Positions 10,621-58,240 are shown, numbered from the stretch's first letter. The stretch is 64,000 nucleotides of DNA from Verrucomicrobiota bacterium (GCA_041167265.1 JBEEHG010000071.1:10617-74616); one strand, 5' to 3'. Made by a program: numbers and translations. The notes: generated from the letters alone by a model not told the origin.

Positions 10621-10901
10621 TCAACCTTCGGGCCGGTCCTTTTCATCCCTGCGGATTTGCCCTGAGAAACTTTCAGGCGACGCGCGGTCTATCACGCGGG
10701 GGACGTCGCTTAAATAGCTGCGGCCAGCCCCTCCTATTGCGTTCCCTCTCTTAAAACGCGGCAGGCGATCGCTCGCACCCTGAACTTCGCGTCGCCCGTG
10801 TAACACAAACGCTGCGCGAGCATACCAGGCACGTCACCGAAGGGCCGTTCGCACGCCGCCCTGCTCGAGCGTGCGGGATTGCCGAGGCTTTGAAATCTGT
10901 T

Positions 10902-14492: not shown

Positions 14493-14676
14493 CGTCTACT
14501 TGATATTAGCACAACGGTCGTTCGCGCATCCGTGGAGGACGTGAGGGGCGCAGCGTCCCAGTGTCGATGTGGCCCAATGGTAATGCTGTTGCACAAACGT
14601 GGCGAATCGTTTTCTTTGCGTGATCGCGAAGGCGAGGTTGAACGATAAATGTGCCGCCTTATGCTCCGCCAAGTTC

Positions 14677-16599
14677 ATGTCCTATCTCCCATCTCGACCG
14701 GTCATTATCACCGGGATGCACCGCTCGGGCACCTCGCTGACTGCTTCTTTTCTGGCCGACCTCGGAGTTCATCTCGGAAACCAACAACTCCGTTCTGATC
14801 GGACCAATCCGCTGGGTTTTTTTGAGGATGTCGGTTTCGTGGAATTACAGGGCCGAATCCTGGCGGCAGCGACTCAGGAAGGAGATGGTGGACATCGCGA
14901 CTGGGGCTGGACGGAAAGCGAGTCGTTTGATCGAAGCTGTTTGCCTGGGTATTGGCCGTTCGCGCAGGACTTAGTCTCGGCCCGCGCTACCGGGCCCGGC
15001 CCCTGGGGATGGAAGGACCCGCGGACTAGCTTGCTCCTCGACTTCTGGGATGACGTCCTCGGCGGACAAGCGGTCTACGTGCTTCTTTATCGCCTGCCTT
15101 GGGAAGTCGCCGATTCCATTCAGCGGCTGGGCGCCAATGTATTCCTCGAAAATCCCGAATACGCCTTGCGCATTTGGTCCTTTTACAACCGCCACCTGTT
15201 GGACTTTTACGGAAGACATTCAGACAGGGCCATCCTCGTCAACTCGAATGCCCTCCAGCGCAATCCAGGAGGTTTCGTGGATCTCCTGCGAAACAAGCTT
15301 GAGCTCGATCTGGGCGACGCACCATTTGACGAAGTTTGGCGCCAGAAGCTGTTTCGCTCATTCGACCCTGACGATCCGTTAATTTCGCTGACGGCTGCGA
15401 CCTCGCTCGAATGTTGCCGCCTGCTCTCGCAACTCGATTCCGGTGCGGACCTTTCCGCAGCGGGCCTTTGGAATACCGCTCCGATCGACGGCCAGCGTCT
15501 CCGGCCAGCCGACCCTGTCGACCTTTCCGTTGTCATCCCTTGTTATAACCAAGGCGAATTCCTGGTGGACGCCATTGCGAGCGTGGAAAGGACTGCGGAA
15601 GGGAAATGCGAGCTGGTTATCGTCAACGACGGATCAACGGAGCGGAGAACGATCGATGTGCTCGATATTTTGCGGAAGGCTGGCTATTACATCCTCGACC
15701 AGCCCAACGCCGGCCTGGCGGCAGCGCGTAACAACGGAATCGCAGTGGCGCGGGGCCAATACATTCTGCCGTTAGACGCCGATAACCGGCTTGCGCCCGG
15801 GTTCATTGCCTCAGCCATCGACCTGCTGAACAAACAAGCCGACATTGGCGTGGTGTATGGCGATCGGCTGGACTTTGGAGCCCGCTCCGGACGCGCGCAT
15901 ATCCCTCCCTTCAACCTTAACCTCCTTCTGCGCTCGAATTATATCGACGCGTGCGCGGTCTACCGGCGCGAGATCTGGAGAAGTTGCGGCGGCTACGATG
16001 CCGGCGCCGCCGTGCTGGAGGATTGGGAGTTCTGGATCGCGACGGCGAAGCGCGGCTGGCATTTCTGCCGGCTAGCTAACCCAACGTTCGAATATCGGGT
16101 CCGTCCTAACTCAATGCTGGCCCTGGCTGGGCAGGATATCCAGAGTTCGACTCATGATTACATCCTTCGCAAGCACCGTACGCTCTATCAGGAGCTCATT
16201 CGAATGGATAAGCTTTCGGCCGAGGACGTAGCAGCAATATCGCTCGAGGTGACCAGTGCGCCCCCGCGAGAAGTTAACGCTTCCGCCACCTTCAAGCTGA
16301 ATGCCAGGGTAACCAACGCCTCGAACAAGGTCCTTTATTCAGTACCGCCTTGTCCCGTTCGTCTGGCCTATCATTGGATCGAAAAAACTACCCGGCAAAT
16401 CGTCGTATTAGATGGCAACCGGAGCGGACTGTTTCCCGGAGCCAATCCGAACACGTCCGAGTCCTATCCGTTAACCATCCTGGCGCCGGCCGAGGCTGGT
16501 GAATACGTCCTCCAGATTACCATGGTGCAGGAGGGGGTCTGCTGGTTTGAAAGCATCCGGGCGGAAATCCTGCAGGAGTTTGGGGTGTTTGTCGTTTAG
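14677..16599 (+). CDS. Fusion protein: N-terminal sulfotransferase domain, GT2 glycosyltransferase domain, and C-terminal ~120-aa shared beta-rich module
   Basis: PAPS 5'-PSB-like ITGMHRSGTSL and 3'-PB-like WKDPRTSL. GT2 motifs LSVVIPCYNQGEFL, VNDGSTE and LDADN. The C-terminus ends ...GEYVLQITMVQEGVCWF. ATG at 14677. Confidence 0.75.
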   Translation: MSYLPSRPVIITGMHRSGTSLTASFLADLGVHLGNQQLRSDRTNPLGFFEDVGFVELQGRILAAATQEGDGGHRDWGWTESESFDRSCLPGYWPFAQDLVSARATGPGPWGWKDPRTSLLLDFWDDVLGGQAVYVLLYRLPWEVADSIQRLGANVFLENPEYALRIWSFYNRHLLDFYGRHSDRAILVNSNALQRNPGGFVDLLRNKLELDLGDAPFDEVWRQKLFRSFDPDDPLISLTAATSLECCRLLSQLDSGADLSAAGLWNTAPIDGQRLRPADPVDLSVVIPCYNQGEFLVDAIASVERTAEGKCELVIVNDGSTERRTIDVLDILRKAGYYILDQPNAGLAAARNNGIAVARGQYILPLDADNRLAPGFIASAIDLLNKQADIGVVYGDRLDFGARSGRAHIPPFNLNLLLRSNYIDACAVYRREIWRSCGGYDAGAAVLEDWEFWIATAKRGWHFCRLANPTFEYRVRPNSMLALAGQDIQSSTHDYILRKHRTLYQELIRMDKLSAEDVAAISLEVTSAPPREVNASATFKLNARVTNASNKVLYSVPPCPVRLAYHWIEKTTRQIVVLDGNRSGLFPGANPNTSESYPLTILAPAEAGEYVLQITMVQEGVCWFESIRAEILQEFGVFVV

Positions 16600-17492
16600 A
16601 CCGTTATGGCCGCCTGGGCCCGCATCGCCGCCTGAGAATTGGTCAACTCGCAATACCTTTCCATTCGCGCCACCCGTTCGGGCGAGAAAAGCCCTTCCTG
16701 TTCCAGAATCCGGTTGACCTCAGCGATTTCCGCGGGATTTGAGGGGGCCCCGAATGGGTGCCAGGTGCTGTCGTAAAGGCCTATGTGCGCGACATAGTCT
16801 ACTACTGCCAGCTGGCGCGTTCGGGCTGCGATCGAGTTCGGATGCCATTTCATCAATTCCCAATCCACATCTCGGTCGCGATGGTGCGGAAAAGGCACGC
16901 ATGCGGCAAGGATCTCTCTTCTCATGATGAGGCAGAGACCGCGCTCTATCGTTTTTACCCTGACTATGATCGTTTGACCACGGAATGGATAGGGCACCTC
17001 AGCTATGGTCTCATGCTCGATGGAGTCGTGGCCGCTAATAACGGCGAAATGGCTATTGCCCTCGAGGATCTCGATCATATCCTGGACGGGCTTCTTGAAG
17101 TAGGCGTCTGCATCCGCCACCATCACGTGCGCAGGGGCACGGTAGCCGGCGAACTCGCAGTCCTGGGTCACCAGCTGGGAGAAGATATTCACGACGAAAG
17201 GTATCCCCATGTTCTGGGGCAGGAAGACCTTGAAGAGGCGATGCTCCTCGCAGCTCAAGCTCTCGATATACCGTGCCGTTTCCGCATCGCTGCCATTGTC
17301 GAAAATCCAGATTGACGCTTCAATCCCGGCTAGCTGGCGAAGCAATGACGTGAAGCTCGCCTGGAAGAGGTCGCTTCGATTCCATACCGGCAAGCACACC
17401 GCGAGCCGGTAGGAAGATCCAGCGGCAGGGCCCTGCCTGGCAGGACCTTCTTTGGTTACGTGGTTTTGCTCAGCTCTAAGCTCGTCAAGCAT
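16596..17492 (-). CDS. GT2-like glycosyltransferase
   Basis: LAVCLPVWNRSDLF, IFDNGSDAET and VADADAYF (DXD). The stop overlaps the convergent 14677..16599 stop (TTAG). Confidence 0.6.
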   Translation of the reverse strand: MLDELRAEQNHVTKEGPARQGPAAGSSYRLAVCLPVWNRSDLFQASFTSLLRQLAGIEASIWIFDNGSDAETARYIESLSCEEHRLFKVFLPQNMGIPFVVNIFSQLVTQDCEFAGYRAPAHVMVADADAYFKKPVQDMIEILEGNSHFAVISGHDSIEHETIAEVPYPFRGQTIIVRVKTIERGLCLIMRREILAACVPFPHHRDRDVDWELMKWHPNSIAARTRQLAVVDYVAHIGLYDSTWHPFGAPSNPAEIAEVNRILEQEGLFSPERVARMERYCELTNSQAAMRAQAAITV

Positions 17493-18040
17493 ATCCCCAA
17501 AACCCGAGGGTCCGCGTTCACTCCTAACGATTTTGGCGATGCCGCCTTCGGCGTCCGGAACTCAAGTGTAAGTGTCCCGCCGTCCTTGGTGATCTCAGCC
17601 GGAATAGCGGCCGTGAATTCAGCGACGTTTCCGACTTGCCATTCCGCTACTTTTTGTCCATTCGCGTAAAGCTCGACCGGTTGAGTTGGAAGCTCGGGCG
17701 GGTGATTCAGCGCGGCTATGTTCACCTTAAGCGTCAACCCGCCAGCAACCGCGGATATTGGCAATGCCAGTTTGGCTGAAGTTCCCTCCGACCAGGTGAA
17801 ATTGGGTTCGGACGCGCTCCAGCCCGAGACACGGTAACGTTCGCTCTGCGCGCCGGCCTTGAATTCGATGCGACGGCCTACCACGTCGCCGGTGGCGGGA
17901 GCGGATTCGGGGGTGGAAGTCGTTTGGGTTGAGCTGTCACAGCCCGCCTGAGTGATCAATGCCAGAGATACTACCGCCGTCGCCGCCCACCCAGTTCTTG
18001 ACCGAAGCCTCGACGACAAAGACGATGATGTTTGATTCAT
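17456..18040 (-). CDS. Putative lipoprotein with beta-rich domain
   Basis: From the ATG at 18040: MNQTSSS...VVSLALITQAGC (lipobox-like) followed by a Ser/Thr linker. Domain GWSASEPNFTWSEG...DPRVLGICL. Confidence 0.6.
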   Translation of the reverse strand: MNQTSSSLSSRLRSRTGWAATAVVSLALITQAGCDSSTQTTSTPESAPATGDVVGRRIEFKAGAQSERYRVSGWSASEPNFTWSEGTSAKLALPISAVAGGLTLKVNIAALNHPPELPTQPVELYANGQKVAEWQVGNVAEFTAAIPAEITKDGGTLTLEFRTPKAASPKSLGVNADPRVLGICLTSLELSKTT

Positions 18041-18163
18041 AGAGTCGAACTGAGCCAAACTGGGTAGAGTGTCAAGTCTGCCACGTCCTAATTTAATGGC
18101 CCCCCGATTGGCGCTAGAAATCTGGTGGCGCGGCGGGCGCGAATTAGCATATGATACCGCGGT

Positions 18164-20173
18164 ATGATCGAGACGACGATTCCCGAAATCAACGTCGCTG
18201 AATTGATGGAGCGGGTGCGGGTGGAGGCCCGACGTTGGCGGCCGCTATCATCTCGGTTGTCGCCGGTTGCGACTACGGACGGGGCGGTCTCGTTGCCCCC
18301 AATTGCGCGCTTGCCAGATGCTCCGTCCATCTGGGTGCCGGGCCCGATTAAATCGAACAGGCCGCGGCTCGATTCTCTCCTCCAGACCGCCGGGGAGAAA
18401 ACCGGGATCGGTTCGCGCATTCCCAAATTTCTTCGCCGATTTTTTCGTAAACAGGGGGCGTTTAATCGCGTGGTCCTCGATACCATGGCCGCCCTGACCA
18501 AGAGTAACGACGCCCTGACGCGTCGTCTCGGTGACGTTTGCATTATCGTGGGCCAATTTAACAACTGGCTCACCGCCGTCCATGAGCAGAGCGATGCGGA
18601 CGCGAACTGGATGAAAGCGGCCGCCCCCGTTATTTCAAAAGTCGCCCTGCTCCAAGCTCGGGTCGAGCTCTTAGTCAGCGAGTTGGACGCGGACCGCAAA
18701 ACGCAAGCTTCATGGCCCGACGACCAGAAACTGCTGGCCCGTAAAATCGAGGCGCTCGCGCGCGAACAACGCCGGCTGGTGGAGCGGCTGGATCTGGCGG
18801 AAACAGCGACCACTGGCAAACTCTCCGAACTGAGTAAGGCTATCGAAGAGAACCGCCCGCTGGTCCGCGGCCTGCAGGATCAAATTCAAGCGGCTACGGC
18901 GAAAGCGCAGCGAACCGCTGACACTGCGGCTAACCACGCGCGCGCAGAGCTGGCCCGGATTGATCAACAAGTCAGCTCCTTGGATAAGCGTCTCGTTGTG
19001 GCAGCCGCGGCGGCGGCAGAAACCGGGACGACTATCGAGAAGCAAATCGACCAGTCGCAGCTTGAGGTTCGAAATCTAAAACAACAAACAGAGGCCTTGG
19101 AGCAACAGATCGGCGAACTCGAAGAAAGCCTCACCAAATCCGCGGCTGAACGCGACCAGCGAACCGAGCAGCTGCGGCACCAATTCGACCTGGGAGGCGA
19201 GCATCTTAGGAACCTCCAGGTCCAGGCGGACCGCCTGGGGATTCACATCAACAATCTCCAGGCATTCGTAGACAAGCATGCGGCCGAAGCAATTGCCGTT
19301 GATCATGGATTGGAACGACGGATCAACGACCATGTCGGCCTGGCTAAGAGAGTTTCCGTAGTGGAAGAAAGGGCGCTAGACGATTCGGCCTTCATTAAGG
19401 GGAGGCTCTCCGAATACGGCGTTCTGCTTCGGAGGCTGCTCGGAGACGGTCACGATGGCGCTATGACAGAACGCGCAAAGACGAAACAGTCATCGAGAGC
19501 AGCGCACGGTCTGGATTCCTTCTATGTGAGTTTCGAGAACCGTTTCCGCGGATCGAGGAGCGAAATCAAACAACGAGTCGCCTTTTACCTGCCGTTTCTT
19601 CGCGACGCGCGCGCCGGTCTGAAGGATCGGCCCCTGCTCGATGTGGGATGTGGCCGCGGCGAATGGCTGGAGCTTCTCCGCGACGAAGAGCTGAAGGCCG
19701 AAGGCATAGATCTAAATCTGGCTATGGTCACCGTTTCGAAAGAGCACAAATTGGATGTCCGCGCTGCTGACGCCGTCCCGTATCTGCGTTCGTTGCGCGC
19801 GAATTCCCTCGGGGCCGTGACCGGCTTTCATATTATCGAGCACCTGCCGTTCGAGGTTTTAATGGATTTGTTCGCGCAGACCCGCCGCGTTCTTAAGCCG
19901 GGAGGTATCGCTATCTTCGAATCGCCCAACTGTAAGAACCTCGTTGTGGGGGCGTGCAACTTTTATGTGGACCCCACCCATCGCAATCCTGTTTTCCCCG
20001 AAACCGCAGAGTTCATGTTGGCGTCGCATGGCTTCGAGCGGATAAGGATAGAGTACCTATCCCCGGTGGTGGGAAGGTCGTTAGGTGACAGCCAGGAGTT
20101 TGCTACCCTAAACCAGTTGCTATATGGTCCTCAGGACTTCGGCGTAATCGCGTACAAGCCCGAGAAGAAATGA
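18164..20173 (+). CDS. Coiled-coil protein with C-terminal class I SAM methyltransferase domain (chain-terminating-methyltransferase-like)
   Basis: N-terminal INVAELMERVRVEA, then about 300 aa of heptad-rich sequence (QLEVRNLKQQTEALEQQIGELEESL). C-terminal motif I LLDVGCGRGEWLELL. Confidence 0.75.
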   Translation: MIETTIPEINVAELMERVRVEARRWRPLSSRLSPVATTDGAVSLPPIARLPDAPSIWVPGPIKSNRPRLDSLLQTAGEKTGIGSRIPKFLRRFFRKQGAFNRVVLDTMAALTKSNDALTRRLGDVCIIVGQFNNWLTAVHEQSDADANWMKAAAPVISKVALLQARVELLVSELDADRKTQASWPDDQKLLARKIEALAREQRRLVERLDLAETATTGKLSELSKAIEENRPLVRGLQDQIQAATAKAQRTADTAANHARAELARIDQQVSSLDKRLVVAAAAAAETGTTIEKQIDQSQLEVRNLKQQTEALEQQIGELEESLTKSAAERDQRTEQLRHQFDLGGEHLRNLQVQADRLGIHINNLQAFVDKHAAEAIAVDHGLERRINDHVGLAKRVSVVEERALDDSAFIKGRLSEYGVLLRRLLGDGHDGAMTERAKTKQSSRAAHGLDSFYVSFENRFRGSRSEIKQRVAFYLPFLRDARAGLKDRPLLDVGCGRGEWLELLRDEELKAEGIDLNLAMVTVSKEHKLDVRAADAVPYLRSLRANSLGAVTGFHIIEHLPFEVLMDLFAQTRRVLKPGGIAIFESPNCKNLVVGACNFYVDPTHRNPVFPETAEFMLASHGFERIRIEYLSPVVGRSLGDSQEFATLNQLLYGPQDFGVIAYKPEKK

Positions 20174-22569
20174 AATTGGCGGTAGTTATCCCCTGGTTTG
20201 GCCGCCTGCTCAAAGGCGGCGCGGAACAACAAGCATGGCAGATTGCCACCCGCCTGGCTGCCCGCGGCCACCATGTCGAAGTCTTGACGACGTGTTGCCA
20301 GTCCTTTCAGGACGATTGGGCGACTAACCACCTGCCGGCGGGCGAGACTAACGAACCGGAAGGTTTTAGAACTCGCCGGTTCCCGGTGGAACCGCGGGAC
20401 CGCGCGAGCTTCGACTCCGTTTGTGCAAAGTTGAGCAAGATTCCTCGTGAGACATTGAAGCCCGGGGTTTTCCCTGTTCCACTGGAACATGCTCGTATCT
20501 TCGTTGACGAATTAATCAGATCATCTGCACTTCAGCAATTCCTTGTAAGTCAACGCGAGAAATTCGATTCCTTCATTTTTCTGCCCTATCTCTATGGTCC
20601 GATCATCCACGGCCTGATGGCTGTCGGCGATCGCGCTTCTCTTCAACCCTGTCTTCATGATGAGGCCTACGCTTATTTGCCGCAGGTCGCTGCCGCCTTC
20701 TATCGAGCGCGCATGCTTTTCTTTAATAGCGAAGGCGAGGCCGAACTGGCCGCTCGACTCTTTGGGCCTGGCATCGCCCTCAAGTCCGTCGTGGTCGGAG
20801 AGGGCGTCGAGACTCGGCCACCAGAGCCGCTAACTGATGAGGTGGAACCGGCCAAGTTCGACCGTTTCGTTCTTTACCTCGGTCGCAAGGAGTCCGGTAA
20901 AAATACCGACCTGTTAGTCCGGGCATTTGGCCGCTTCCGTCTTGTCCGCCCCAACTCGTCGCTTCGGCTGGTCTTGGCCGGTCATGGCTCCGTGGAGTTA
21001 AATGGCTATGGCGACTACATCACTGACCTGGGCCTGGTGTCGGATGCGGAAAAGGAGCAGTTGCTTCACCACTGTCTTGCGGTCGCCCAACCGAGCGTCA
21101 ACGAGAGTTTCTCCCGGACAATGATGGAAGCCTGGTTTCACGGTAAACCGGTCGCGGTCAATAGTCAGTGCCTGGCTACCTCGATTGAAGCCCGGAACGC
21201 CGAGGGCGGCTGGATAGCCGGAGATGAAGAAGACTGGGCCGCGCTATTTGTCGAGATCGATCGCGCCCAGCCGGAAGAGCTGCGGAGGCTGGGCGAAAAC
21301 GGGAAGCGCCGCGCGAAGCTGGTGGCTGACTGGGATAAGGTTATGGACCGCTATGAGCATGAGTTGAAGCTCATGAGGCCGCCGGCCCACGATTTCCGGT
21401 CCATTGACGTCTCCGCCCCTTTGGGCATCCATCAGTTTCTTCCCAACCTTTCCTACGGCGACGCTATCTCCAATGAGGCCATGTCGATCCGCTCCCACCT
21501 CCGCGCCCGTGGCCTCCACTCAGAAATCTACGTCCGTTTCATCGATCCGCGGGTAGCTGATCAGTGTTCAATATTTTCGCCCGACGCACTTAATGCCTCT
21601 TCGGCGATCATCTATCATCATAGTATTGGAACCGAAATTACCCCGCATGTCCTGAAGTACGGCGGCCCAAAGTGTGTCATCTACCATAATATCACCCCGG
21701 CGGAATTCTTTGAGTCTTACCGGCCGGACTTTGCGGCCATTCTTCGGCAAGGGCGCGAAGACCTTCGTAAACTGGCGTCTCACTTTGACGTTGCGGTAGG
21801 CGATTCGGCCTTTAATGTGGAAGAGCTTGCTCGGTGCGGCTTCCGGGATCCCGGCGTCTTATCGATCTGCGTCGATCCTGGTAAATGGGATACTTCGCCG
21901 GACGAGTCGCTCATGCGCAGCCTCCAGGACGGACGCACAAATCTCTTATTTGTCGGCCGCATATCCCCAAACAAGAAACAGGACGACTTAGTCCGTGCGT
22001 TCCAACAGTACCTAAACTTTGATCCGAACGCCCGGCTGATTCTTGTTGGCACCCTCGAGCAGGAAGATCCGTACGCGGAGGAAGTTCGCGCTCTCATCGC
22101 TTCCGGTGGGCTCGAGCCCTCCGTTATCATCACGGGCAATATCTCTGACTCGCAGCTCGCGGCCTATTATCGGACGGCCCATCTTTTTTGGTCGATGTCG
22201 GAACACGAAGGATTTTGCGTGCCTCTCATAGAGTCGATGTGGTTCGATGTCCCTGTCTTTGCCTTCCGTAGCTCTGCGGTCCCCGAAACGCTGGGGAACG
22301 CGGCTTTAATGTTTGCCGACAAGGCTGATCTGCGCGCCGTTGCCGCTCTTGCGAAGATAATCGTAGACGACAAGACGTTAGGAGCGACCCTCATCCGCAA
22401 GCAGCGCCAACAACGGCAGGCATTTTTGCCGTCTAAGTTTGAACCGCAGTTGACAAAGCTTGTCGAGCGCCTCTTACCGCGCCGGGATAGCATCACGTCC
22501 TCAGGGAAGCGACGGACCGGTCCGCGGCCCGCCGCTTCTCCCCGCCGGGAAAGCTCAGCGCACGTATGA
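20170..22569 (+). CDS. Tandem GT4 glycosyltransferase (two GT-B modules in one 799-aa protein)
   Basis: Two EX7E-type regions: SVNESFSRTMMEAWFHGKPV and SMSEHEGFCVPLIESMWFDVPV. The start overlaps the upstream stop (ATGA). Confidence 0.8.
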   Translation: MKLAVVIPWFGRLLKGGAEQQAWQIATRLAARGHHVEVLTTCCQSFQDDWATNHLPAGETNEPEGFRTRRFPVEPRDRASFDSVCAKLSKIPRETLKPGVFPVPLEHARIFVDELIRSSALQQFLVSQREKFDSFIFLPYLYGPIIHGLMAVGDRASLQPCLHDEAYAYLPQVAAAFYRARMLFFNSEGEAELAARLFGPGIALKSVVVGEGVETRPPEPLTDEVEPAKFDRFVLYLGRKESGKNTDLLVRAFGRFRLVRPNSSLRLVLAGHGSVELNGYGDYITDLGLVSDAEKEQLLHHCLAVAQPSVNESFSRTMMEAWFHGKPVAVNSQCLATSIEARNAEGGWIAGDEEDWAALFVEIDRAQPEELRRLGENGKRRAKLVADWDKVMDRYEHELKLMRPPAHDFRSIDVSAPLGIHQFLPNLSYGDAISNEAMSIRSHLRARGLHSEIYVRFIDPRVADQCSIFSPDALNASSAIIYHHSIGTEITPHVLKYGGPKCVIYHNITPAEFFESYRPDFAAILRQGREDLRKLASHFDVAVGDSAFNVEELARCGFRDPGVLSICVDPGKWDTSPDESLMRSLQDGRTNLLFVGRISPNKKQDDLVRAFQQYLNFDPNARLILVGTLEQEDPYAEEVRALIASGGLEPSVIITGNISDSQLAAYYRTAHLFWSMSEHEGFCVPLIESMWFDVPVFAFRSSAVPETLGNAALMFADKADLRAVAALAKIIVDDKTLGATLIRKQRQQRQAFLPSKFEPQLTKLVERLLPRRDSITSSGKRRTGPRPAASPRRESSAHV

Positions 22570-23735
22570 CGGACTCTCCCGAAACCGAAGGAAGCGGTTT
22601 GGCGCGACTTCAGTCTGTCTGGGAGAGCCATGCCAGACAGGACCCTTTGTGGGCCATTCTTACCGGTCCGGACAAAGTCGGGCGCAAATGGAATCTCGCC
22701 GAATTTTTCGGGACTGGCCTGCACGAAATCGACAGTTTGTGTGATACGCTGGCCCTTCACGAAATCGGCTTCGAGCCCGATGCGGCCCTCGACTTTGGCT
22801 GCGGTGTCGGTCGGCTGAGTCAAGCGCTCTGCCGGAGGTTCCAGCACGTGTCTGGCATCGACATCTCCCCAACGATGATAGAAACGGCCGAGCGCCTCAA
22901 CCAACACGAAGGCAAGTGCAGATACTTTTTGAACGCGCGCTCCGATCTCCAGTTGTTTCAGGATGAGACGTTTTCGTTCATTTACTCAAATATCGTCCTT
23001 CAACACATCGCTCCTGCTTTGACAAAACAGTATCTCGCCGAGTTCTCGCGGATTTTGAAGCCCGACGGCTTGTTAATCTTCCATTTGCCAAGCCGCTTTA
23101 ACGAAGCCAAAGGATTGCCTCCCGAAGCATGGGTTGCCTCTCTGCAATGCGCCGACCAACAATTCTCTTGGCCGGCTTCTTCGAGCGTCGCTGCTCAAGT
23201 CCGCATCCAGAATAAGAGTCCTGTCCTCTGGGAATACGAACCAAGGATGCCGATCTTACTTGGAAACCATTGGATAGATGATAGCGGACAAACGGTCCGC
23301 CAGGACGACGGGCGCGCCCTGCTGCCAAATTCATTGTCTCCCGGAGCTATCGCTGAAGTCGAGATTGAGATGAGAACGCCGCCGTCGCCGGGACGGTATA
23401 CGGTCGAGTTTGACCTCGTGCAAGAAGGGGTCTCCTGGTTCAAAGACAAAGGCAGCGGGACAATCTCGGTGCCTGTAGAAGTCGTCCTTCCCGCGTCCCC
23501 CCGGCCGGTGACCCTTGAAAACAATCAGGAGCACTCGGCGGACGGGGCCGAGCCAGAAAACACGGGAACGAAGGATTCATTTGAAGGATTCAGCATGTGG
23601 TGTATCCCACGTTCGGAAGTAATGCGGTTATTGTATGATCATGACATGCGCATCGAATACGTGGAACTTTCTCCGTGCGGCGGGCCCGGATTTCAAAGTT
23701 ACGCTTACTTCGCGCGGAAGACCGTGACTGGATAA
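22566..23735 (+). CDS. Class I SAM methyltransferase with inserted shared beta-rich module
   Basis: Motif I ALDFGCGVGRLSQ, IYSNIVLQHI and LKPDGLLIFHLP, then the module ending GRYTVEFDLVQEGVSWF, then a terminal MTase strand. Confidence 0.8.
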   Translation: MTDSPETEGSGLARLQSVWESHARQDPLWAILTGPDKVGRKWNLAEFFGTGLHEIDSLCDTLALHEIGFEPDAALDFGCGVGRLSQALCRRFQHVSGIDISPTMIETAERLNQHEGKCRYFLNARSDLQLFQDETFSFIYSNIVLQHIAPALTKQYLAEFSRILKPDGLLIFHLPSRFNEAKGLPPEAWVASLQCADQQFSWPASSSVAAQVRIQNKSPVLWEYEPRMPILLGNHWIDDSGQTVRQDDGRALLPNSLSPGAIAEVEIEMRTPPSPGRYTVEFDLVQEGVSWFKDKGSGTISVPVEVVLPASPRPVTLENNQEHSADGAEPENTGTKDSFEGFSMWCIPRSEVMRLLYDHDMRIEYVELSPCGGPGFQSYAYFARKTVTG

Positions 23736-23850
23736 GGCGACAGTATGGCGGCCCAACAAAGATATTGGCCCAAGGCAGCACGGGATGGCGCGGCATCAGC
23801 CTGGAGCTCGTGCTGTTTGGCCCGCTATTCCCCCTTTTCGTTTTCAATCC

Positions 23851-24777
23851 ATGAGCGCCGCTAACGCCGTTCTGCCCGCCTTGAATACCCCTGTGCTGCC
23901 ATCGTTACTGCTGCCGTTAAGACCGCCATTACCTCTGCCAGCCGGGCAAACGGAGGAGACGCTCCGCCTGTTGTTTGAGTCAATCGAACTGGAAGGTTCG
24001 CCAAAGGAGGAATTCAGGACATACTGGCAGGAAGATTGGCCGCGGTTCGTCCACACTTTGGGAATGGTCGATCGGTTGACCGGCGCATGTCTTGAACTCG
24101 GGTCCAATCCATACTTCACCAGCACCTTGCTGCGTTTTTTCACAAAATTGGAGCTCACCCTGGCGAACTACTTCGGGCCCCATTTTCCAGGGAATTCCTC
24201 TCAGAAGCTCAAGGTCCGCAATCCCCATACTGGGCGGCTCGAGCATTGCACCATGGAGTTCGCGCATTTCAACATCGAGGATGCGGCCTTCCCATTCCCG
24301 GACGCGTCCTTCGCCGTTGTGCTTTTTTGTGAAGTAATCGAACATCTGCAATCGGACCCGGTGAAGGTGTTACTCGAGATCAAGCGCGTCCTTGAGCCTG
24401 GCGGTCATTTAATCCTGACGACTCCAAATGTTAGTCGCCTCGAGAACGTCGGCCGGATGATTGCCGGCGTGAATATTTACGACCCCTACTCAGGCTACGG
24501 CGCCTATGGCCGACACAACCGCGAATACAATAAGCACGAGCTCGCGTTGCTTTTGCGGTACTGTGGTTTTGACGTTGAAGTTTTGTTCTCCGCTGATGTT
24601 CATGATAATATTACTTCAAGCCTCTTTTCCCTGGACGATATTGTGCCCCTGGTAAAGTTCCGGCAGCACGATCTCGGGCAGTACCTATTCAGCCGCTCCC
24701 GAAACTCGCGCCGAGCGGGCCGCAAACGGCCGGCATTCCTTTATCGTAGCTACCCGCCAGGCGAGCTCGATCCCTAG
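23851..24777 (+). CDS. Class I SAM methyltransferase
   Basis: CLELGSNPYF, VVLFCEVIEHL and LEPGGHLILTTPN. ATG at 23851 (the track start at 23785 is an upstream alternative). Confidence 0.75.
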   Translation: MSAANAVLPALNTPVLPSLLLPLRPPLPLPAGQTEETLRLLFESIELEGSPKEEFRTYWQEDWPRFVHTLGMVDRLTGACLELGSNPYFTSTLLRFFTKLELTLANYFGPHFPGNSSQKLKVRNPHTGRLEHCTMEFAHFNIEDAAFPFPDASFAVVLFCEVIEHLQSDPVKVLLEIKRVLEPGGHLILTTPNVSRLENVGRMIAGVNIYDPYSGYGAYGRHNREYNKHELALLLRYCGFDVEVLFSADVHDNITSSLFSLDDIVPLVKFRQHDLGQYLFSRSRNSRRAGRKRPAFLYRSYPPGELDP

Positions 24778-24850
24778 AAATGAATTTCATTGTTTTTATC
24801 AAGTCCGCGACCGCAAATCCTCGGACCTGCGTTCTCATAAGTTCCCGCCA

Positions 24851-25942
24851 ATGACACCGGACCCTCGGCCGGATTTGCTGACCGGGATGTCGGATGAGGC
24901 GTTCGTCCAATTATGTTACCGACGCTTGCTCGGCCGGGAAGCTGACGAAGGAGGCCTTGGCGCGAACGTGGCGGCGTTGCGCAACGGTCTTTCCCGTTTC
25001 GATGTGGTTGTGGGCCTGGTAACGAGTCCCGAGTTCTACACGGTTCTTACGAAATCCACCTTCGGCGATTTCAAGCTCCCCCGCCTGCAGGAGATTCGTC
25101 CGGAAAGTTTTGAGGTATTGACTACCTCGTCGGGCGATAAGACAAACACCTTCCGCGTTCGAGACGCTTCGGATTATGACTGGCTGGAGCGGATGATTCT
25201 GGAGCACGGTTATTACGAAAAGCCGGGTGTCTGGTCCCTCGCGGTTGACCAGGATAAGAGAATTATTGCGGAGATCATCGGTCACTTCGGAGTTCGTCGC
25301 TGTCTGGAGCTGGGCTGCGCGACCGGTCCGGTCCTTAAACTTCTCTTGGAAGCGGGAATCAAACCGGAAGGTGTGGAGATCAGCCATATGGCGCTGGCCC
25401 TGGCTTATCCCGAGATTAAAAAGAGAATTCACTTTGGTGATTTGCTGAATCTCGATCTGAAGGATGAATACGACATGATCATTGGGATGGATGTGTTCGA
25501 GCATCTTAATCCCAACAAGATCTCCCAATATGTGAACCGATGTTTCAAGCTGCTCCGGCAAGGCGGCTATGTCTTTACCAATATTCCCGCTTTTGGAAAC
25601 GACCGCATTTTCGGCGAAGTATTCCCTCTTTATTTGGAGGCGTGGCGAACCGAATCCTCCCAAAAATCTCTGTTTTCTCTGTTGAATGTCGACGACGCTG
25701 GGTGGCCTATCAATGGGCACCTGATTTGGGCGACATCGCGATGGTGGCAGGGCATTTTCGAAGACGCCGGATTCTCGAGAGAAACGGGAATCGAACAAGC
25801 TCTCCATCAAGTATACGATCCGTTTTTTCTCGCGTCTGCTCCCGCACGAAAATCGTTCTTCGTTTTCTCCAAGGACGCAACCTCGGCTGACACGGATCAG
25901 ATCGCGCTTTCCATCGGACGAAACGGCTCGTCATGCCTGTAG
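24851..25942 (+). CDS. DUF4214-like N-terminal domain fused to a class I SAM methyltransferase
   Basis: FVQLCYRRLLGREADEGGL...LVTSPEF (DUF4214-type) followed by motif I CLELGCATGPVL and GMDVFEHL. Confidence 0.75.
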   Translation: MTPDPRPDLLTGMSDEAFVQLCYRRLLGREADEGGLGANVAALRNGLSRFDVVVGLVTSPEFYTVLTKSTFGDFKLPRLQEIRPESFEVLTTSSGDKTNTFRVRDASDYDWLERMILEHGYYEKPGVWSLAVDQDKRIIAEIIGHFGVRRCLELGCATGPVLKLLLEAGIKPEGVEISHMALALAYPEIKKRIHFGDLLNLDLKDEYDMIIGMDVFEHLNPNKISQYVNRCFKLLRQGGYVFTNIPAFGNDRIFGEVFPLYLEAWRTESSQKSLFSLLNVDDAGWPINGHLIWATSRWWQGIFEDAGFSRETGIEQALHQVYDPFFLASAPARKSFFVFSKDATSADTDQIALSIGRNGSSCL

Positions 25943-26038
25943 GTGACGGACACCAAACTCGATGATTTGGCTGCGTTGGCACGGCGGGAGGAAAGCGTAA
26001 GTAGCGGGTCGTTTATTACCAGTCGAGCTTCATCCAGC

Positions 26039-27271
26039 ATGAGAGTCGCTTTTGTTGTTCAGCGCTGTGGCCAGGAAGTGGTAGGGGGCGCGGAATCCCA
26101 CTGCTTGCAGGTTGCACAACGGATGGCGAAGTATTGGCGCACTGAGGTGCTTACCACCTGCGCCCTGGACTACATGGAGTGGCAGAACCATTATCCGGAA
26201 GGGACTGAGGAGATCGGCGAGACCGTCGTCCGGAGATTTCTCGTGGATCAGCCGCGCGATGTGGCCAGCTTTAACAATTTGTCCGGTGATCTCGCGGGCC
26301 GGCGGGCGACCGCAACCCTGGCGGAGCAGGAGCAATGGATGCGCGCGCAAGGCCCGATGTCGACTCCGCTTCTTCAGTATCTCCGCTCGAAACGTCACGC
26401 ATACGACTTCTTCATTTTCTTCGGGTATCTGTACGCGACCACGTATTTCGGGTTACCCATTGTGAAGGAGAAGGCGTTTCTCGCCCCGCTCGCGCACGAC
26501 GAATGGCCAATCTACTTCAGCATGTGGGACAACTTGTTCTCGCTCCCCCGCGGGTTCTTCTTTAATACCGTCGAGGAACGACAATTTTTAGGACGGCGCT
26601 TTCCTTTCTTGGAACTTTCGGGCCCGGTGGTAGGCATTGGCGTCGAGGCGCCCTCAACCTTGAATCCGGAGGAATTCCGCGAACGCTATGGTCTCTCGAA
26701 GCCGTTCCTTCTTTACGTTGGGCGCATCGATGCCTCAAAGGGTTGTGGAGAGCTATTCGACGCATTCATCCGGTTGCGTGATAGTGATGCGATCGCGCAT
26801 CGACTGGTATTGATCGGCAAGGAAGTTCTGCCTGTTCCCTATCACAAGGACTTGATTTACCTTGGCGTGCTTTCCGATGAGGCGAAATGGAACGCCCTGG
26901 CGGCCTGCGATTGGCTCGTGGCGCCCTCTCCGTATGAAAGTCTTTCGATGGTGCTATTAGAGGCGTGGACGGCAGGGCGTCCGGCGCTTGTCACCGCGGC
27001 GTCCGAGGTCCTGGTCGGGCACTGCGAGCGTTCGAATGGCGGACTCTGGTTTCATGATTACGATGAATGCGCTGCCATTATTCGAAACGTCGATGAGGCC
27101 ACGAAACAAAGCCTGGGCGAACAGGGGCGAACCTACGTAAGAAACAACTACTCCTGGAATACGATCGAGTCAGCCTTTCTTAAGATGGCTTCCGGTAAGC
27201 AGCAACCGGTTCGCGGTGGCTTCGACACGCGGCCGGGGCTCGAGAGCGCGGCAGGCCACCGCCTAATATAA
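26039..27271 (+). CDS. GT4 glycosyltransferase
   Basis: MRVAFVVQRCGQEVVGGAESHC N-terminus and PSPYESLSMVLLEAWTAGRPALV (EX7E). An alternative GTG start lies at 25943. Confidence 0.8.
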   Translation: MRVAFVVQRCGQEVVGGAESHCLQVAQRMAKYWRTEVLTTCALDYMEWQNHYPEGTEEIGETVVRRFLVDQPRDVASFNNLSGDLAGRRATATLAEQEQWMRAQGPMSTPLLQYLRSKRHAYDFFIFFGYLYATTYFGLPIVKEKAFLAPLAHDEWPIYFSMWDNLFSLPRGFFFNTVEERQFLGRRFPFLELSGPVVGIGVEAPSTLNPEEFRERYGLSKPFLLYVGRIDASKGCGELFDAFIRLRDSDAIAHRLVLIGKEVLPVPYHKDLIYLGVLSDEAKWNALAACDWLVAPSPYESLSMVLLEAWTAGRPALVTAASEVLVGHCERSNGGLWFHDYDECAAIIRNVDEATKQSLGEQGRTYVRNNYSWNTIESAFLKMASGKQQPVRGGFDTRPGLESAAGHRLI

Positions 27272-27280
27272 AACAAGAAC

Positions 27281-29311
27281 ATGCCTTTCGAAGACGCATC
27301 AGCCCAGGACACTGGCCGCATCGCGGCGGTGCCATCCCCCCCTTTGCCCAGACTTTGGATTAGTTTGTACGCGCTGACCATTTTGCTGGCCTGTCTGCAT
27401 ACCGGGCAGAGCATTGTCTTCTTCGATGGGATCCCCGGCGACCTTGCTGATGCGCGAGTGACGAACTGTATTCTCGAACACGGATTCCAATCCATCCTGG
27501 GCTACGCCCGCCTGCTCTCGCCGTCCCAATTCTATCCGGTAGAAGGCACTCTCGTATACACCGATAACCATCTGGGGACGCTTCCGATCTATGCCATCTA
27601 TCGATGGGTTGGCTTTTCCATGGAGCGGTCGTTCCAAGGTTGGTTCTTAACGGTCATCGCCCTTGATGCGGCTTCCCTCCTCTTCCTCTTTCGCAGACTC
27701 CGGATCAGCCGCGCTCTAGCGTGTCCGTTGGCGTTTTTCGGGGCATCGTCCTGTTCCCTGGTCCTCAAGTGTGGTCACCCGCAGGTCCTTCCCTACTTTC
27801 CATTCATTCTGGCTCTGGCCTGTTTCCTTTCTTTTCTTCGTTCGGCAGACGCACGGCTGCTGGCATGGGCGGTCATTTGGTTCGCCTATCAGAATGCGTG
27901 CTACATGTACGATGGATACTTTAGCGTCCTTATTCTTACCGCTGTCTTGGTTGTCTTCATGGCCCTGACGGCACCGCGCGATTTCTGGCCTCTCGTCTCT
28001 CAATCGGCCCGCAGGAATGCCGTATTTCTAAGTTGTACCATCGTCCTTAGTATGGCGGGATTGGCGCTCTTGTATGCTCCCTATGCCGGTTTTAGCTCCA
28101 AATCCGGCACCAGGCCGATGGCCGAGCTCCTCTTGCTCGCCCCGAATCCGGGGGCATGGTTTAGCGCTTCTGCCCAGAGCGCATTCTATTCCGCACAAAA
28201 GTTCTATAAACCTGGCGGTTACATCATCGAAAATACCTTATTCAGTGGCTGGGTTGCCTGGGCCATGACGCTGGTGGCGCTGGGCACGGGGCTCAGGGCC
28301 AGCCGGCCATCTGATTACCGTCTGGCGGCAGTTCTCGCCGGGTCTTGCGTTCTTCTGGTCGGTTTCATTACTACCTGGCGCGGGACGACTGGGAACGCCT
28401 ACCTCTGGGTTGCCGATCATATTTCGAGTCTTCGCGCATTCCGTTCCTTTGCGCGAATCGCGTATTTGTTATTCGTCCTTCAGGCTGCGGCCATCGCGGT
28501 TTTTCTTAACGCCGTCTATGTCTCCACGCGGTCGCGCCTCGTCCGAGTCTTGACTGTCGTGGTCGCTGCGGCGATTGCCGTTGAGCAGCTTTCGCTCGGG
28601 CAGTTTCACTATTCACCCTGGATCGCGCAACTGCGTGTCGCGGGGTTGGTTGAGATGTGGCGGAAAGCCGGCGACCACCAAGTCCTGATTTTTGCGCCTG
28701 GTTACAGCAACCAGGGTGCGGAAACGATCAATACCGACAGCTGGCAGGCCGCTCTCAGTTTGCATAGATTTTCCATCAACGGTTATAGCGGAAACCAGCC
28801 TGCGAATTACGCGCAGTTCCTCAACACGCCGTCGGTCGAAAACGCCAAGGCACTCCTGACAACGTTGGGACTTAACGTTTCGGCCGTTTCCTTAGTTACC
28901 GATTGGCCCGAGGCGGTCAAAGCGCGGCTGGGCATTCAGACCTATACGACCTCGGCACGGATTGTGCCGAAGGCCAAGGCTACCGAAATCACGCTGAGTC
29001 CCGGTGAAGAAGCGACGTTACCGATCACGTTGCACTCCGAAGAACCCGGTGACGTTCCGTGCGACGTGCTCCACATCTACGCGTCGTACCGGCTGTTTGA
29101 CACCCGCGGCGTAAATGTAATTGACCCGCCGTCCCCGCGTACGTTTGTTCACACGGTGCGCCCCGGTGATTCGGAAACGATCGCGCTTCGCATGCAGGCT
29201 CCTCGTACGCCCGGTGTTTACGAAGCGAAACTCTCGATGGTGCATGAGGGCGTAGCGTGGTGGGCGGACATCGGAGCGCCAGGGTCCATCGTCAAATTTG
29301 TTGTTCAATAG
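27281..29311 (+). CDS. Large polytopic membrane protein (GT-C-like?) with C-terminal shared beta-rich module
   Basis: At least 10 hydrophobic helices over about 430 aa, then a soluble region ending ...GVYEAKLSMVHEGVAWW. Confidence 0.65.
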   Translation: MPFEDASAQDTGRIAAVPSPPLPRLWISLYALTILLACLHTGQSIVFFDGIPGDLADARVTNCILEHGFQSILGYARLLSPSQFYPVEGTLVYTDNHLGTLPIYAIYRWVGFSMERSFQGWFLTVIALDAASLLFLFRRLRISRALACPLAFFGASSCSLVLKCGHPQVLPYFPFILALACFLSFLRSADARLLAWAVIWFAYQNACYMYDGYFSVLILTAVLVVFMALTAPRDFWPLVSQSARRNAVFLSCTIVLSMAGLALLYAPYAGFSSKSGTRPMAELLLLAPNPGAWFSASAQSAFYSAQKFYKPGGYIIENTLFSGWVAWAMTLVALGTGLRASRPSDYRLAAVLAGSCVLLVGFITTWRGTTGNAYLWVADHISSLRAFRSFARIAYLLFVLQAAAIAVFLNAVYVSTRSRLVRVLTVVVAAAIAVEQLSLGQFHYSPWIAQLRVAGLVEMWRKAGDHQVLIFAPGYSNQGAETINTDSWQAALSLHRFSINGYSGNQPANYAQFLNTPSVENAKALLTTLGLNVSAVSLVTDWPEAVKARLGIQTYTTSARIVPKAKATEITLSPGEEATLPITLHSEEPGDVPCDVLHIYASYRLFDTRGVNVIDPPSPRTFVHTVRPGDSETIALRMQAPRTPGVYEAKLSMVHEGVAWWADIGAPGSIVKFVVQ

Positions 29312-29364: not shown

Positions 29365-31263
29365 ATGCCAACTCCTCTTAAAGAACCACCGGAGGCAGCG
29401 CCGGCGTCTGCGGACAATCGCTGGCTTTCCGCTTCAAACCGGGTCGCGGACTCGAGTCGGAGCCAGGCCATCCTGCTGGTGTTGCTTGCAGCGCTGTACT
29501 TGTTGTCGTATCTGAGCCAACCTCTCCTGCCCGGGAACAATCTGGAACATCCGAATGGCTGGTGGGGATGGTGGGACCAAGGGCAGTATTTACGGTCCGC
29601 GGCTGCCATTTCGCACTGGGCCCTCGGACCCGAGACTTACTGGTATCCGCTCGGTTATCCTGCCCTTGGGGCATTGTTCTACCGGTGGGTGCCACAGCAC
29701 GCCTTTTTCCTGCCTGATTTGGCGCTGGTTCTGGGCGCCGTCGTCCTGTTTTTCAAAATCGCCAGACGGATGGTCAGTTCGCTTGAGGCAATCCTGCTCA
29801 TCGCGGTTTTTGTCGTTGCTTATGCCGGAACTATAACAATCAGCGTCATTACGCCATGGAACACGATCCCGACCCATTTTCTTTGTTACATGATGATCTG
29901 GCTGGTTGGCTTTCGCGAACTTACCAAGATGCGCATTTACGCCGCGGCCCTCTGCCTGGGACTGATTTATACTTGCCGCGCTCTGGATGCAGCCTGCATG
30001 GGTTTGATCCTTGCGGTTGCGATTCTGCAAGTGCCGGGGTGGCGAGACAAGTTCAAGGTGGGTCTCATTTCCTCTATCGTTGTCGCGATTCCCGTTGGCT
30101 GCATTCTACTGATCAACCGGTCCGTCTTCGGCGCATGGGTTACTCCTTACGAACAAATGAGCGGGCGCATGGGCTTCGGCGCGTATCCGTTCGCTAAGAA
30201 GCTTTTTATACTGCTCGTCGATGGGCGTCCTGTTTTTCGCGAGGGGGATACCGCCTATTTTTCTCATTTCCCATGGCTGGTCCTCGCTCCGGTTGGAATC
30301 GTTTACTTACTGCGGCGCTATGACGCAAAGGCTATAGGTGTCCTGCTGAGCGGTGCGGTAACGTACGCCGCCTATTTCTCCTATAACGATTTCTGGCCTC
30401 ATACGACGTTCCGTTTCGGTCAGATCCACTATCTCTTCTGGACTTTGCCGCTGTTGGCATTGTTCACCTATGCGGGGATCAAGCATTCCTGGAAGAACCG
30501 CGTGGGCCGCTGGAGCTATGGCCTGGTGCTCCTGATCCTGTTTCCAGTCTGCTTTTTGTCATTACAGGAGGAAACCCGGGGCAGAGGCACCTTGGCTCCG
30601 AACTCCACGGTGGATGTTACTCCGATTGAAGGCCAGCACATCGACTGGATTGCTTTTCCGGGGGCGAGCGCACTACCTAAACTATACGTCGACGGCCGGG
30701 AGTTAATGCAGTTCTCGCAGTACGTAGCTCCAATTCGACCTGATGGGACCGCCGCTCTAATGGCTAGTGGCATGCAGGAGAAGAGTATCAAGATCGCCCT
30801 CCAAGGCGTCGCGAACTCACAAACCCCGGAGTTTGGAACCCTGGATTGGCGGCGGCGATGGACACCGAGAACGGCGGTCTTAGCGTTGCAGGATTATCTC
30901 TTCTCACCCACGATTGTTCTGTTAGGCAAAACTCAGAACGTCGATATTATCGGGCCGAAAGGCGAACCCGATGGAGAGCCCGACCAAGTAGTTCGGGTCA
31001 CGCTTCACCAGCGGCTGTTCGATCGGATTCGCGCATGGGAGATTGAAACGGACGATAAGCACGGGCACTGGGTCACAACTCCGAACTCGCAGGGATGGTG
31101 GCTTATCAAGGTTCATGAAAGCCAGAAGAAGGAAGGCAGCGATCAGATCCAGGTCACTCTATGCTTTCCAGATTTCGGCGACTTTGAAAAGGCAAGCGCG
31201 TTCGCAGTGCGCGCGTCGGATGCTAGCGGCCGCTATGTTTTCGAGCGCGAGGTTCGAAAATAA
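29365..31263 (+). CDS. Large polytopic membrane protein, GT-C/ArnT-PMT-like (putative)
   Basis: About 11 TM helices followed by a ~200-aa soluble C-terminal domain. Adjacent to the other GT-C-like gene. Confidence 0.6.
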   Translation: MPTPLKEPPEAAPASADNRWLSASNRVADSSRSQAILLVLLAALYLLSYLSQPLLPGNNLEHPNGWWGWWDQGQYLRSAAAISHWALGPETYWYPLGYPALGALFYRWVPQHAFFLPDLALVLGAVVLFFKIARRMVSSLEAILLIAVFVVAYAGTITISVITPWNTIPTHFLCYMMIWLVGFRELTKMRIYAAALCLGLIYTCRALDAACMGLILAVAILQVPGWRDKFKVGLISSIVVAIPVGCILLINRSVFGAWVTPYEQMSGRMGFGAYPFAKKLFILLVDGRPVFREGDTAYFSHFPWLVLAPVGIVYLLRRYDAKAIGVLLSGAVTYAAYFSYNDFWPHTTFRFGQIHYLFWTLPLLALFTYAGIKHSWKNRVGRWSYGLVLLILFPVCFLSLQEETRGRGTLAPNSTVDVTPIEGQHIDWIAFPGASALPKLYVDGRELMQFSQYVAPIRPDGTAALMASGMQEKSIKIALQGVANSQTPEFGTLDWRRRWTPRTAVLALQDYLFSPTIVLLGKTQNVDIIGPKGEPDGEPDQVVRVTLHQRLFDRIRAWEIETDDKHGHWVTTPNSQGWWLIKVHESQKKEGSDQIQVTLCFPDFGDFEKASAFAVRASDASGRYVFEREVRK

Positions 31264-44049: not shown

Positions 44050-44171
44050 GGACCTTTCCTCCCCTCTTCCCTCTTTTGCCTCTGTTCGATCTTGTTGTCA
44101 ATAACGATCTTGACAGATATTATTGAAGTTTTGACTTTCCTCGGCCGCTTTTCTGCTGTGAAGTGATTTCC

Positions 44172-45185: not shown

Positions 45186-45201
45186 GAAAATCAACCGCTC
45201 T

Positions 45202-58189: not shown

Positions 58190-58240
58190 TCTGGGAAAGC
58201 TTAATACTTGATGTCGCCGCTAATAGAATCGGCGCTCATT

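Follow-up and report, generated by a model that had tools for sequence, protein, structure and literature searches.

An NBR1-like FW domain recurs in glycan-building enzymes of a Verrucomicrobiota polysaccharide cluster

Why should three enzymes of glycan synthesis that are otherwise unrelated carry the same small beta-rich domain, and what is that domain? The question is raised by a 64,000-nucleotide stretch of DNA from a Verrucomicrobiota bacterium (GCA_041167265.1 JBEEHG010000071.1:10617-74616; hereafter the window, in which all positions are counted), where a preliminary description made from the sequence alone had noticed a module of about 120 amino acids (aa) in a glycosyltransferase, in a methyltransferase, and in a membrane protein. 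We find that this module is an NBR1-like FW domain of the bacterial type (Pfam PF16158, N_BRCA1_IG). The family has been catalogued before, and the novelty lies in the genomic context, which ties its bacterial branch to enzymes that build polysaccharides. The three host proteins and their module copies are as follows.

14599-16599, plus strand: protein of 666 aa with a sulfotransferase-like N-terminal part, a family 2 glycosyltransferase (GT2) domain at aa 310-431, and a C-terminal module
16237-16596, plus strand (from about 16231 in the preliminary description): GT2-type copy of the module (copy 1), aa ~547-666, an FW-like beta-sandwich that has diverged
22566-23735, plus strand: class I S-adenosylmethionine (SAM) methyltransferase of 389 aa with an internal module (Methyltransf_11, E = 6e-20, aa 75-172)
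23127-23486, plus strand: module copy 2 (methyltransferase type), aa 188-307, an NBR1-like FW / N_BRCA1_IG domain
27281-29311, plus strand: polytopic membrane protein of 676 aa with a layout like that of fold-C glycosyltransferases (GT-C) and a soluble C-terminal region ending in the module
28958-29308, plus strand: module copy 3 (aa 560-676; membrane-protein type), more diverged than the other two

Each of the three segments (~117-122 aa) lies in frame inside a long plus-strand open reading frame (ORF), and BLASTP links all of them with E values from 4e-13 to 4e-8, in agreement with the earlier claim that they align as one module: the GT2 copy with the methyltransferase copy (E = 4e-13, 92 aa aligned, 29% identity), the methyltransferase copy with the membrane copy (E = 7e-9, 43 aa aligned), and the GT2 copy with the membrane copy (E = 4e-8, 59 aa aligned). 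A MAFFT alignment of the three copies has 11 invariant columns at 25-28% identity. When the family of the membrane protein was aligned by hhalign to an unrelated family of GT-C (PMT_2) proteins that also carry the module, 106 module columns were matched (probability 98%, E = 1.8e-13). The pairwise and profile alignments together therefore extend the similarity to the entire ~115-residue beta-domain, beyond the short VxEGVxWF motif. The possibility, raised in the preliminary description, that the likeness is confined to this motif with no consistent fold is contradicted by BLASTP, by hhalign, and by the structural model described below. The endings quoted there were found in the translations (GEYVLQITMVQEGVCWF, GRYTVEFDLVQEGVSWF, and GVYEAKLSMVHEGVAWW). 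Its list of shared motifs needs one correction, in that N-x-S and HW are common to the GT2 and methyltransferase copies only, the membrane copy reading HSEEPG and YRL.

The module is an eight-strand Ig-like beta-sandwich of ~115 residues. Against PF16158, for which the gathering cut-off is 28 bits, the methyltransferase copy scores above the cut-off both in isolation (33.8 bits) and in the full protein (30.5 bits; aa 208-294), the membrane copy scores 18.5 bits, under the cut-off, and the GT2 copy gives no direct Pfam match for the module and is recovered by hmmsearch with a large profile (E = 8e-26). We assign the GT2 and membrane copies to PF16158 because of the BLASTP and hhalign links given above, and because 52 of the 57 Pfam-scanned homologues retrieved with a profile of the three copies match this family (best E = 1.2e-72). 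The same three-copy profile, searched against PDB sequences, has human ILRUN as its best match (6vhi, E = 0.027). The AlphaFold2 (AF2) model of the methyltransferase copy, computed from 26 aligned sequences, is all-beta, with eight strands and one short helix (mean predicted local distance difference test [pLDDT] = 94.4, predicted template-modelling score [pTM] = 0.86). The Foldseek search of the isolated module that had been proposed in the preliminary description, run with this model against PDB, returned FW domains of NBR1 and ILRUN at ranks 1-4 (NBR1 4ole: E = 3e-7, template-modelling score [TM] = 0.62; ILRUN 6vhi: TM = 0.67/0.74). Lower matches included the N-domain of GH123, RbmA, a porphyran-binding carbohydrate-binding module (CBM), CARDB, and the Wzt carbohydrate-binding domain; the likeness to the porphyran-binding CBM, RbmA, and the Wzt domain is weak and of the generic beta-sandwich kind. 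Against the viral library, Foldseek gave generic Ig-like matches only. CARDB (PF07705) shares N-x-G after the second long strand and is represented among the Foldseek matches by 2kl6 and 3idu (TM = 0.56-0.61), and 16 of the 57 homologues also match CARDB, with co-matches to LacZ_4 and NPCBM_assoc as well; PF16158 is, however, by far the stronger match, and none of the three window copies has a CARDB match in Pfam.

The signature of the module reads N-x-G-x3-W ... (Y)HW ... R ... PG ... P-x3-G-x-Y ... D-(L/M)-V-x-E-G-V-x-W-F. With residues numbered as in the methyltransferase copy and conservation measured over 833 aligned bacterial copies, the most constant positions are N29 (100%), P85 (99%), G89 (94%), W35 (93%), W104 (93%), F105 (91%), Y91 (86%), G31 (82%), E100 (79%), and R63 (78%); D96 (66%) and Y47-H48-W49 (~60%; H48 60%, W49 59%) are less conserved. 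The polar conservation (N29, R63, E100, D96, and H48) can be read, from the alignment, as a putative binding site and not only as a fold core. The FW domains of NBR1 and ILRUN (PF16158; IPR032350; cd14947; 4OLE, 6VHI) have the same Ig-like beta-sandwich and share N-x-G-x3-W and P-x3-G-x-Y with the bacterial copies, whereas the D-(L/M)-V-x-E-G-V-x-W-F segment is restricted to the bacterial branch and stands where the eukaryotic domain has WR...FG (aligned stretch of ILRUN: WRMCTATGLYYGD). The four tryptophans after which the FW domain is named are not all retained in the window copies: the methyltransferase copy has W35, W49, and W104, the GT2 copy has two tryptophans and lacks W35, and in the membrane copy W35 and W49 are missing and the two tryptophans present stand side by side (WW at 104-105). 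The bacterial module differs further from its eukaryotic relatives in occurring in arrays of up to 14, and its partners in the window are glycan-building enzymes, as opposed to autophagy receptors or XRE regulators.

Did the three copies arise where they now stand? A tree built from 191 copies of the module separates the window copies from each other by 4-6 substitutions per site and groups each of them with the modules of orthologues that share the architecture of its host protein (methyltransferase type: 37-87% identity; GT2 type with the same architecture: 51-91%; membrane type: 45-92%). These distances, and the nesting with orthologues, rule out a recent duplication within the cluster. The GT2-type module is found elsewhere in sulfotransferase-only proteins, in one methyltransferase, and mid-protein in other GT2 proteins, and the domain order of module-bearing proteins in other phyla sometimes differs. 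Tree distances, orthologue nesting, and varied placement together indicate old fusions and repeated domain shuffling, and the three copies are old, separate subfamilies.

How widespread such fusions are was assessed by an exhaustive search of the three-copy profile against 1.84 billion cluster representatives, which matched 9,777 proteins at E ≤ 1e-3, of which 3,584 pass E ≤ 1e-10. Tandem arrays of 2-14 module copies are found in many of these proteins and belong to secreted enzymes (S8 peptidases, amidases, SpoIID). Because a word-indexed protein search had too little sensitivity to count partners (11, 27, and 7 hits), the census was taken from the exhaustive profile search and from a genome scan. 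The scan, with one genome per species, yielded 292 confirmed module loci in Verrucomicrobiota (Chthoniobacterales best), Acidobacteriota, Cyanobacteria, Chloroflexota, Nitrospirota, Thermodesulfovibrionales, Planctomycetota, and others. Among the 70 single-module proteins of the fetched loci, 37 are methyltransferases, 10 are family 4 glycosyltransferases (GT4), and 6 are PMT_2 (GT-C) proteins, with GT2 (2), SPOR (3), and PAPS_reduct (2) among the remaining partners. The survey of domain partners that the preliminary description had called for thus finds the module fused to methyltransferase, GT4, GT2, sulfotransferase-like, and GT-C (PMT_2) enzymes in many phyla, in accord with the mobile domain of cytoplasmic and membrane enzymes envisaged there. 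The mobility therefore holds; what needs revision is the standing of the module, which is a recognised member of the catalogued family PF16158.

Several of these loci resemble the window in having the module on adjoining genes. At five loci in metagenome-assembled genomes (MAGs) of Pyrinomonadaceae (Acidobacteriota; L023, 3200-10349; L030; L052; L053; L065), 3-5 adjoining genes each have one terminal module. Among their products are a GT4 plus methyltransferase (894 aa), an MTase_9 protein (382 aa), a protein of ~185 aa that consists of the module alone, and one of 765 aa that matches no Pfam family. At six loci in Chloroflexota/Limnocylindria MAGs (L045, L047, L050, L058, L061, L064), 2-3 adjoining large genes have 4-6 tandem copies each, and the Chloroflexota protein that was scanned (L045) is an S8 subtilase. 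Within the genus of the window, 12 of 18 other species have 1-6 module copies, often 2-3 within ~15 kb, and in other genera of the order the module was found in none of 12. This patchy occurrence is a pattern typical of variable surface-glycan clusters.

The methyltransferase that contains copy 2 (hereafter the FW-methyltransferase) has orthologues in many phyla and shows how the module is accommodated in an enzyme fold. In class I methyltransferases, the position after strand beta5 is a common site of substrate-recognition inserts. With the module excised, positions 71-255 of the 270 in the orthologue profile align in one stretch to the solved class I methyltransferases 9sls and 9sm0, and because this alignment runs across the junction the module is a true insertion, as the preliminary description had supposed, and lies after strand beta5. 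The C-terminal tail (aa 341-389; F-x-F-S-M-x-x-I-P-R...Q-S-Y-x-Y-x-A-R-K) is conserved in orthologues and completes the Rossmann-like fold. The FW-methyltransferase gene is the third of a triad that extends over 18164-23735 with 4-bp overlaps at both junctions, the first two genes being as follows.

18164-20173, plus strand: coiled-coil and methyltransferase protein, gene 1 of the triad (Pfam methyltransferase at aa 485-591)
20170-22569, plus strand: tandem GT4 of 799 aa, gene 2 of the triad, with two Glycos_transf_1 stretches

This unit is conserved across phyla (Verrucomicrobiota, Cyanobacteria, and, in part, Acidobacteriota). Orthologues of the coiled-coil methyltransferase adjoin FW-methyltransferase genes at four loci (L004, L008, L014, L040), and orthologues of the tandem GT4 stand beside FW-methyltransferase genes with E values of 0 to 1e-267. 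Two cyanobacteria (Chlorogloeopsis and Scytonema) keep the triad order with strong orthologues, a Chthoniobacterales genome arranges the three genes differently, and in a Bryobacteraceae genome the coiled-coil methyltransferase and the FW-methyltransferase alone are present, side by side. In Chlorogloeopsis fritschii PCC 6912, the triad lies directly 3' of a Wzt gene with a Wzt_C domain, so that in this cyanobacterium the unit belongs to an O-polysaccharide pathway of the ABC-transporter type. By gene and domain layout the triad is comparable to WbdA/WbdD of the Escherichia coli O8/O9a O-antigen: a multi-domain GT4 is likewise paired with a translationally coupled coiled-coil methyltransferase, and the cyanobacterial triad likewise adjoins a Wzt with Wzt_C. 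The triad differs in that the domain order of the coiled-coil methyltransferase is reversed and in that the FW-methyltransferase has no E. coli counterpart.

On which side of the membrane do the three copies operate? The 666-aa protein matches Glycos_transf_2 (E = 7e-23) and, weakly, Sulfotransfer_3 (E = 0.023), and hydropathy analysis found no hydrophobic segments in this protein or in the FW-methyltransferase. Enzymes of this kind use 3'-phosphoadenosine 5'-phosphosulfate (PAPS), nucleoside diphosphate sugars, and SAM, and we place the GT2 and methyltransferase modules in the cytoplasm because their hosts combine such substrates with the lack of hydrophobic segments. The membrane protein has ~11 transmembrane helices, as judged from hydropathy and from the helix list of its AF2 model, for which pLDDT is 44.9 over the whole protein with 6 sequences and better, about 55-88, in the module region. 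Its short Arg-rich loops (137-143, 186-191, 233-244, 339-347, and 416-423) all fall on the same side with the N-terminus inside, an arrangement in which the long loops and the C-terminal module domain would be periplasmic. The module of the membrane protein thus probably faces the periplasm, a prediction that combines the positive-inside rule with the helices of a low-confidence model. In the ArnT/PMT family, the C-terminus is extracytoplasmic. PMT_2-type GT-C proteins of other phyla have the same module at the C-terminus, which is consistent with the periplasmic placement, and the adjoining minus-strand operon contains a small GT2 of the polyprenyl-phosphate-sugar synthase type, which fits periplasmic glycosylation by GT-C enzymes.

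The GT-C-like traits of this host are its ~11 helices, its long first outer loop (48-113, with D57, E66, and H67 invariant), and its C-terminal soluble domain. Membership in GT-C is not established by them: the membrane part has no Pfam, NCBIfam, or PDB relative, profiles of the membrane-protein family and of the PMT_2 plus module family gave nothing useful against PDB sequences, and the hhalign alignment between these two families is limited to the module. Immediately 3' of the gene lies a second polytopic membrane protein (29365-31263, plus strand; 632 aa) with a ~230-aa soluble C-terminal part, no Pfam family, and no module.

The three hosts belong to one large glycan cluster that spans ~2.6 to 41.4 kb of the window. 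It encodes a nucleotidyltransferase, a GHMP kinase, epimerases/dehydratases, and a C-methyltransferase, and it further contains at least nine SAM methyltransferases, four GT2, five GT4, an acyltransferase_3, and two GT-C-like membrane proteins. The SAM methyltransferase genes are at 4319-5894, 10890-11582, 12790-13557, 18164-20173, 22566-25942, and 33355-34653, with one C-methyltransferase that is TylC3-like; their unusually large number (at least nine) suggests a heavily methylated polysaccharide. Genes for PAPS supply lie at the following locus.

38289-41396, minus strand: CysN/CysC fusion (APS_kinase and GTP_EFTU) and a CysD-like gene (PAPS_reduct)

To judge from gene context, the PAPS made by CysNC and CysD would serve the sulfotransferase part of the protein with the GT2 module, and the product of the cluster is probably a methylated, sulfated polysaccharide. 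Export or polymerase genes of the Wzx, Wzy, Wzm, Wzt, and Wza types were not recognised in the window by Pfam, and no Wzt_C domain was found in the whole genome. Long ORFs (597, 318, 340, 337, 472, and 424 aa) without a Pfam match at E ≤ 1e-4 lie at 540-2333 (minus strand), 13536-14492 (minus strand), 44163-46215 (plus strand), and 56431-59515 (minus strand).

The large profile finds four module copies in the 4.0-Mb genome, of which three are those described above, within 13 kb of the cluster. The fourth (contig C18:105026-113113, E = 2e-25) occupies aa ~2065-2206 of a surface-type protein (2,696 aa) that also has RCC1 repeats, Laminin_G_3 (LamG), fn3, Big_9/cadherin-like domains, and bacterial TSP3 repeats.

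What might such a domain do for these enzymes? The reading that we prefer, and to which we give about an even chance, is that the module is non-catalytic and binds the common acceptor, i.e., the growing or finished glycan chain. It would keep each enzyme on the polymer in the manner of a carbohydrate-binding module or of the Wzt C-terminal domain, the GT2/sulfotransferase and methyltransferase copies acting on the glycan in the cytoplasm and the GT-C-like copy in the periplasm. Given cytoplasmic copies and a predicted periplasmic one, a common ligand would have to occur on both membrane faces, for example as a lipid-linked glycan. Of the ligands put forward in the preliminary description (the glycan, its lipid carrier, or the membrane), the glycan is favored by partner and gene context (three of the four genome copies in a glycan cluster, the partner census, the neighbouring module genes at acidobacterial loci and in congeneric genomes, and the triad), by the conserved polar residues, and by the insertion site in the methyltransferase; use on both faces is favored because cytoplasmic enzymes and the C-termini of PMT_2/GT-C proteins carry the module and because tandem arrays occur on secreted enzymes. 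Wzt_C (PF14524; 6O14, 8DKY) offers a parallel as a cytoplasmic beta-sandwich on a glycan-pathway protein that recognises the finished chain, with a weak fold likeness to the module (TM ~0.54). It is attached to the transporter of ABC-dependent O-antigen export, whereas the FW module is attached to enzymes, and the analogy is one of function only.

A number of points weigh against glycan binding. The census is biased, because the methyltransferase copy heads the alignment from which the locus scan started and the top-150 list favors multi-copy proteins. The module alignment has no sequence relation to any CBM family, gives an hhalign probability of 0.3% against a cyanobacterial Wzt_C-bearing protein, and has no PF14524 match, so that kinship with Wzt_C is ruled out at the sequence level. 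At 25-28% identity, the three copies need not share one ligand, and the periplasmic site of copy 3 is predicted from a positive-inside reading and a model of low confidence (pLDDT = 44.9). The functions demonstrated for FW domains are protein-protein contacts only (Nbr1 FW-Ams1, PMC9233695; NBR1-MAP1B, PMC3357945), and the XRE-FW regulators of the literature (PMC3357945) have no obvious glycan link.

These contacts, the only experimentally defined functions of FW domains (PMC9233695, PMC3357945), make protein docking a serious rival to glycan binding, if an unlikely one, and one that was absent from the preliminary description: by attaching to a partner protein or to a second FW domain, the sandwich would gather the enzymes into a complex or pair them as dimers. 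One copy on each of several adjoining genes is what a shared assembly tag would give, the small module-only proteins (~180 aa) among the module genes could serve as adaptors, and a dimerisation domain would fit the XRE-FW regulators. With two copies on obligately cytoplasmic enzymes and one predicted to be periplasmic, however, a single complex of the three would be impossible; the copies are, moreover, highly divergent (4-6 substitutions per site), and up to 14 tandem copies on secreted hydrolases are atypical for a specific docking tag.

The module could also be a passive Ig-like domain for spacing, solubility, or stability, without a ligand of its own and spread by domain shuffling, which we regard as quite improbable. 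Long tandem Ig-like arrays on surface proteins often act so, the fourth copy of the genome sits among fn3, Big_9, and LamG domains of the 2,696-aa protein, and the homologues that co-match CARDB, LacZ_4, and NPCBM_assoc connect the module with accessory beta-sandwiches of glycoside hydrolases. Yet a spacer would not lead one to expect the conservation of N29 (100%), R63 (78%), E100 (79%), W104 (93%), and F105 (91%) over 833 copies from many phyla, a single-copy fusion per enzyme type that is retained in orthologues down to 37-50% identity, or an insertion within the methyltransferase fold in a substrate-proximal position. A role as an anchor, in which the module would attach soluble enzymes to the membrane or to the polyprenyl-phosphate carrier at the site of lipid-linked glycan assembly, is very improbable. 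In its favor, the GT2, methyltransferase, and GT-C enzymes of such pathways work on lipid-linked substrates at the membrane, and a loop and a short helix lead into the W-F pair, which is nearly invariant. Against it, the module has no amphipathic helix or hydrophobic stretch, such an anchor would be superfluous for a membrane protein, and tandem arrays on secreted peptidases and amidases account for many of the homologues.

If glycan binding is the right reading, it may extend beyond this cluster. We advance tentatively, as a possibility still open to considerable doubt, that the bacterial FW branch is a hitherto unrecognised glycan-binding family that tethers tailoring enzymes (methyl-, sulfo-, and glycosyltransferases, and GT-C enzymes) and secreted wall hydrolases to their polysaccharide on both membrane faces. 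If this were true, clusters with several module genes would mark the set of enzymes acting on one polymer, and the FW domain of autophagy receptors, for which alpha-mannosidase is a known cargo, would descend from a binding module of glycan pathways.

Bacterial FW domains have been described in "strikingly diverse" proteins, mostly near the C-terminus, including XRE-FW regulators (PMC3357945, 2012), and the function of the FW domain has been called enigmatic beyond cargo binding by fungal Nbr1 (PMC9233695). Our literature search found no paper tying the bacterial FW domain to glycan enzymes. The autophagy receptor NBR1 has FW as its signature domain, and for the bacterial relatives of that domain the present cluster, with others like it, is the first coherent context that we found. 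The results suggest that, in large glycan clusters, FW tags may flag the enzymes that act on the polymer as opposed to those that act on nucleotide-sugar precursors, and the link to polysaccharide-building enzymes makes the function of an enigmatic domain directly testable.

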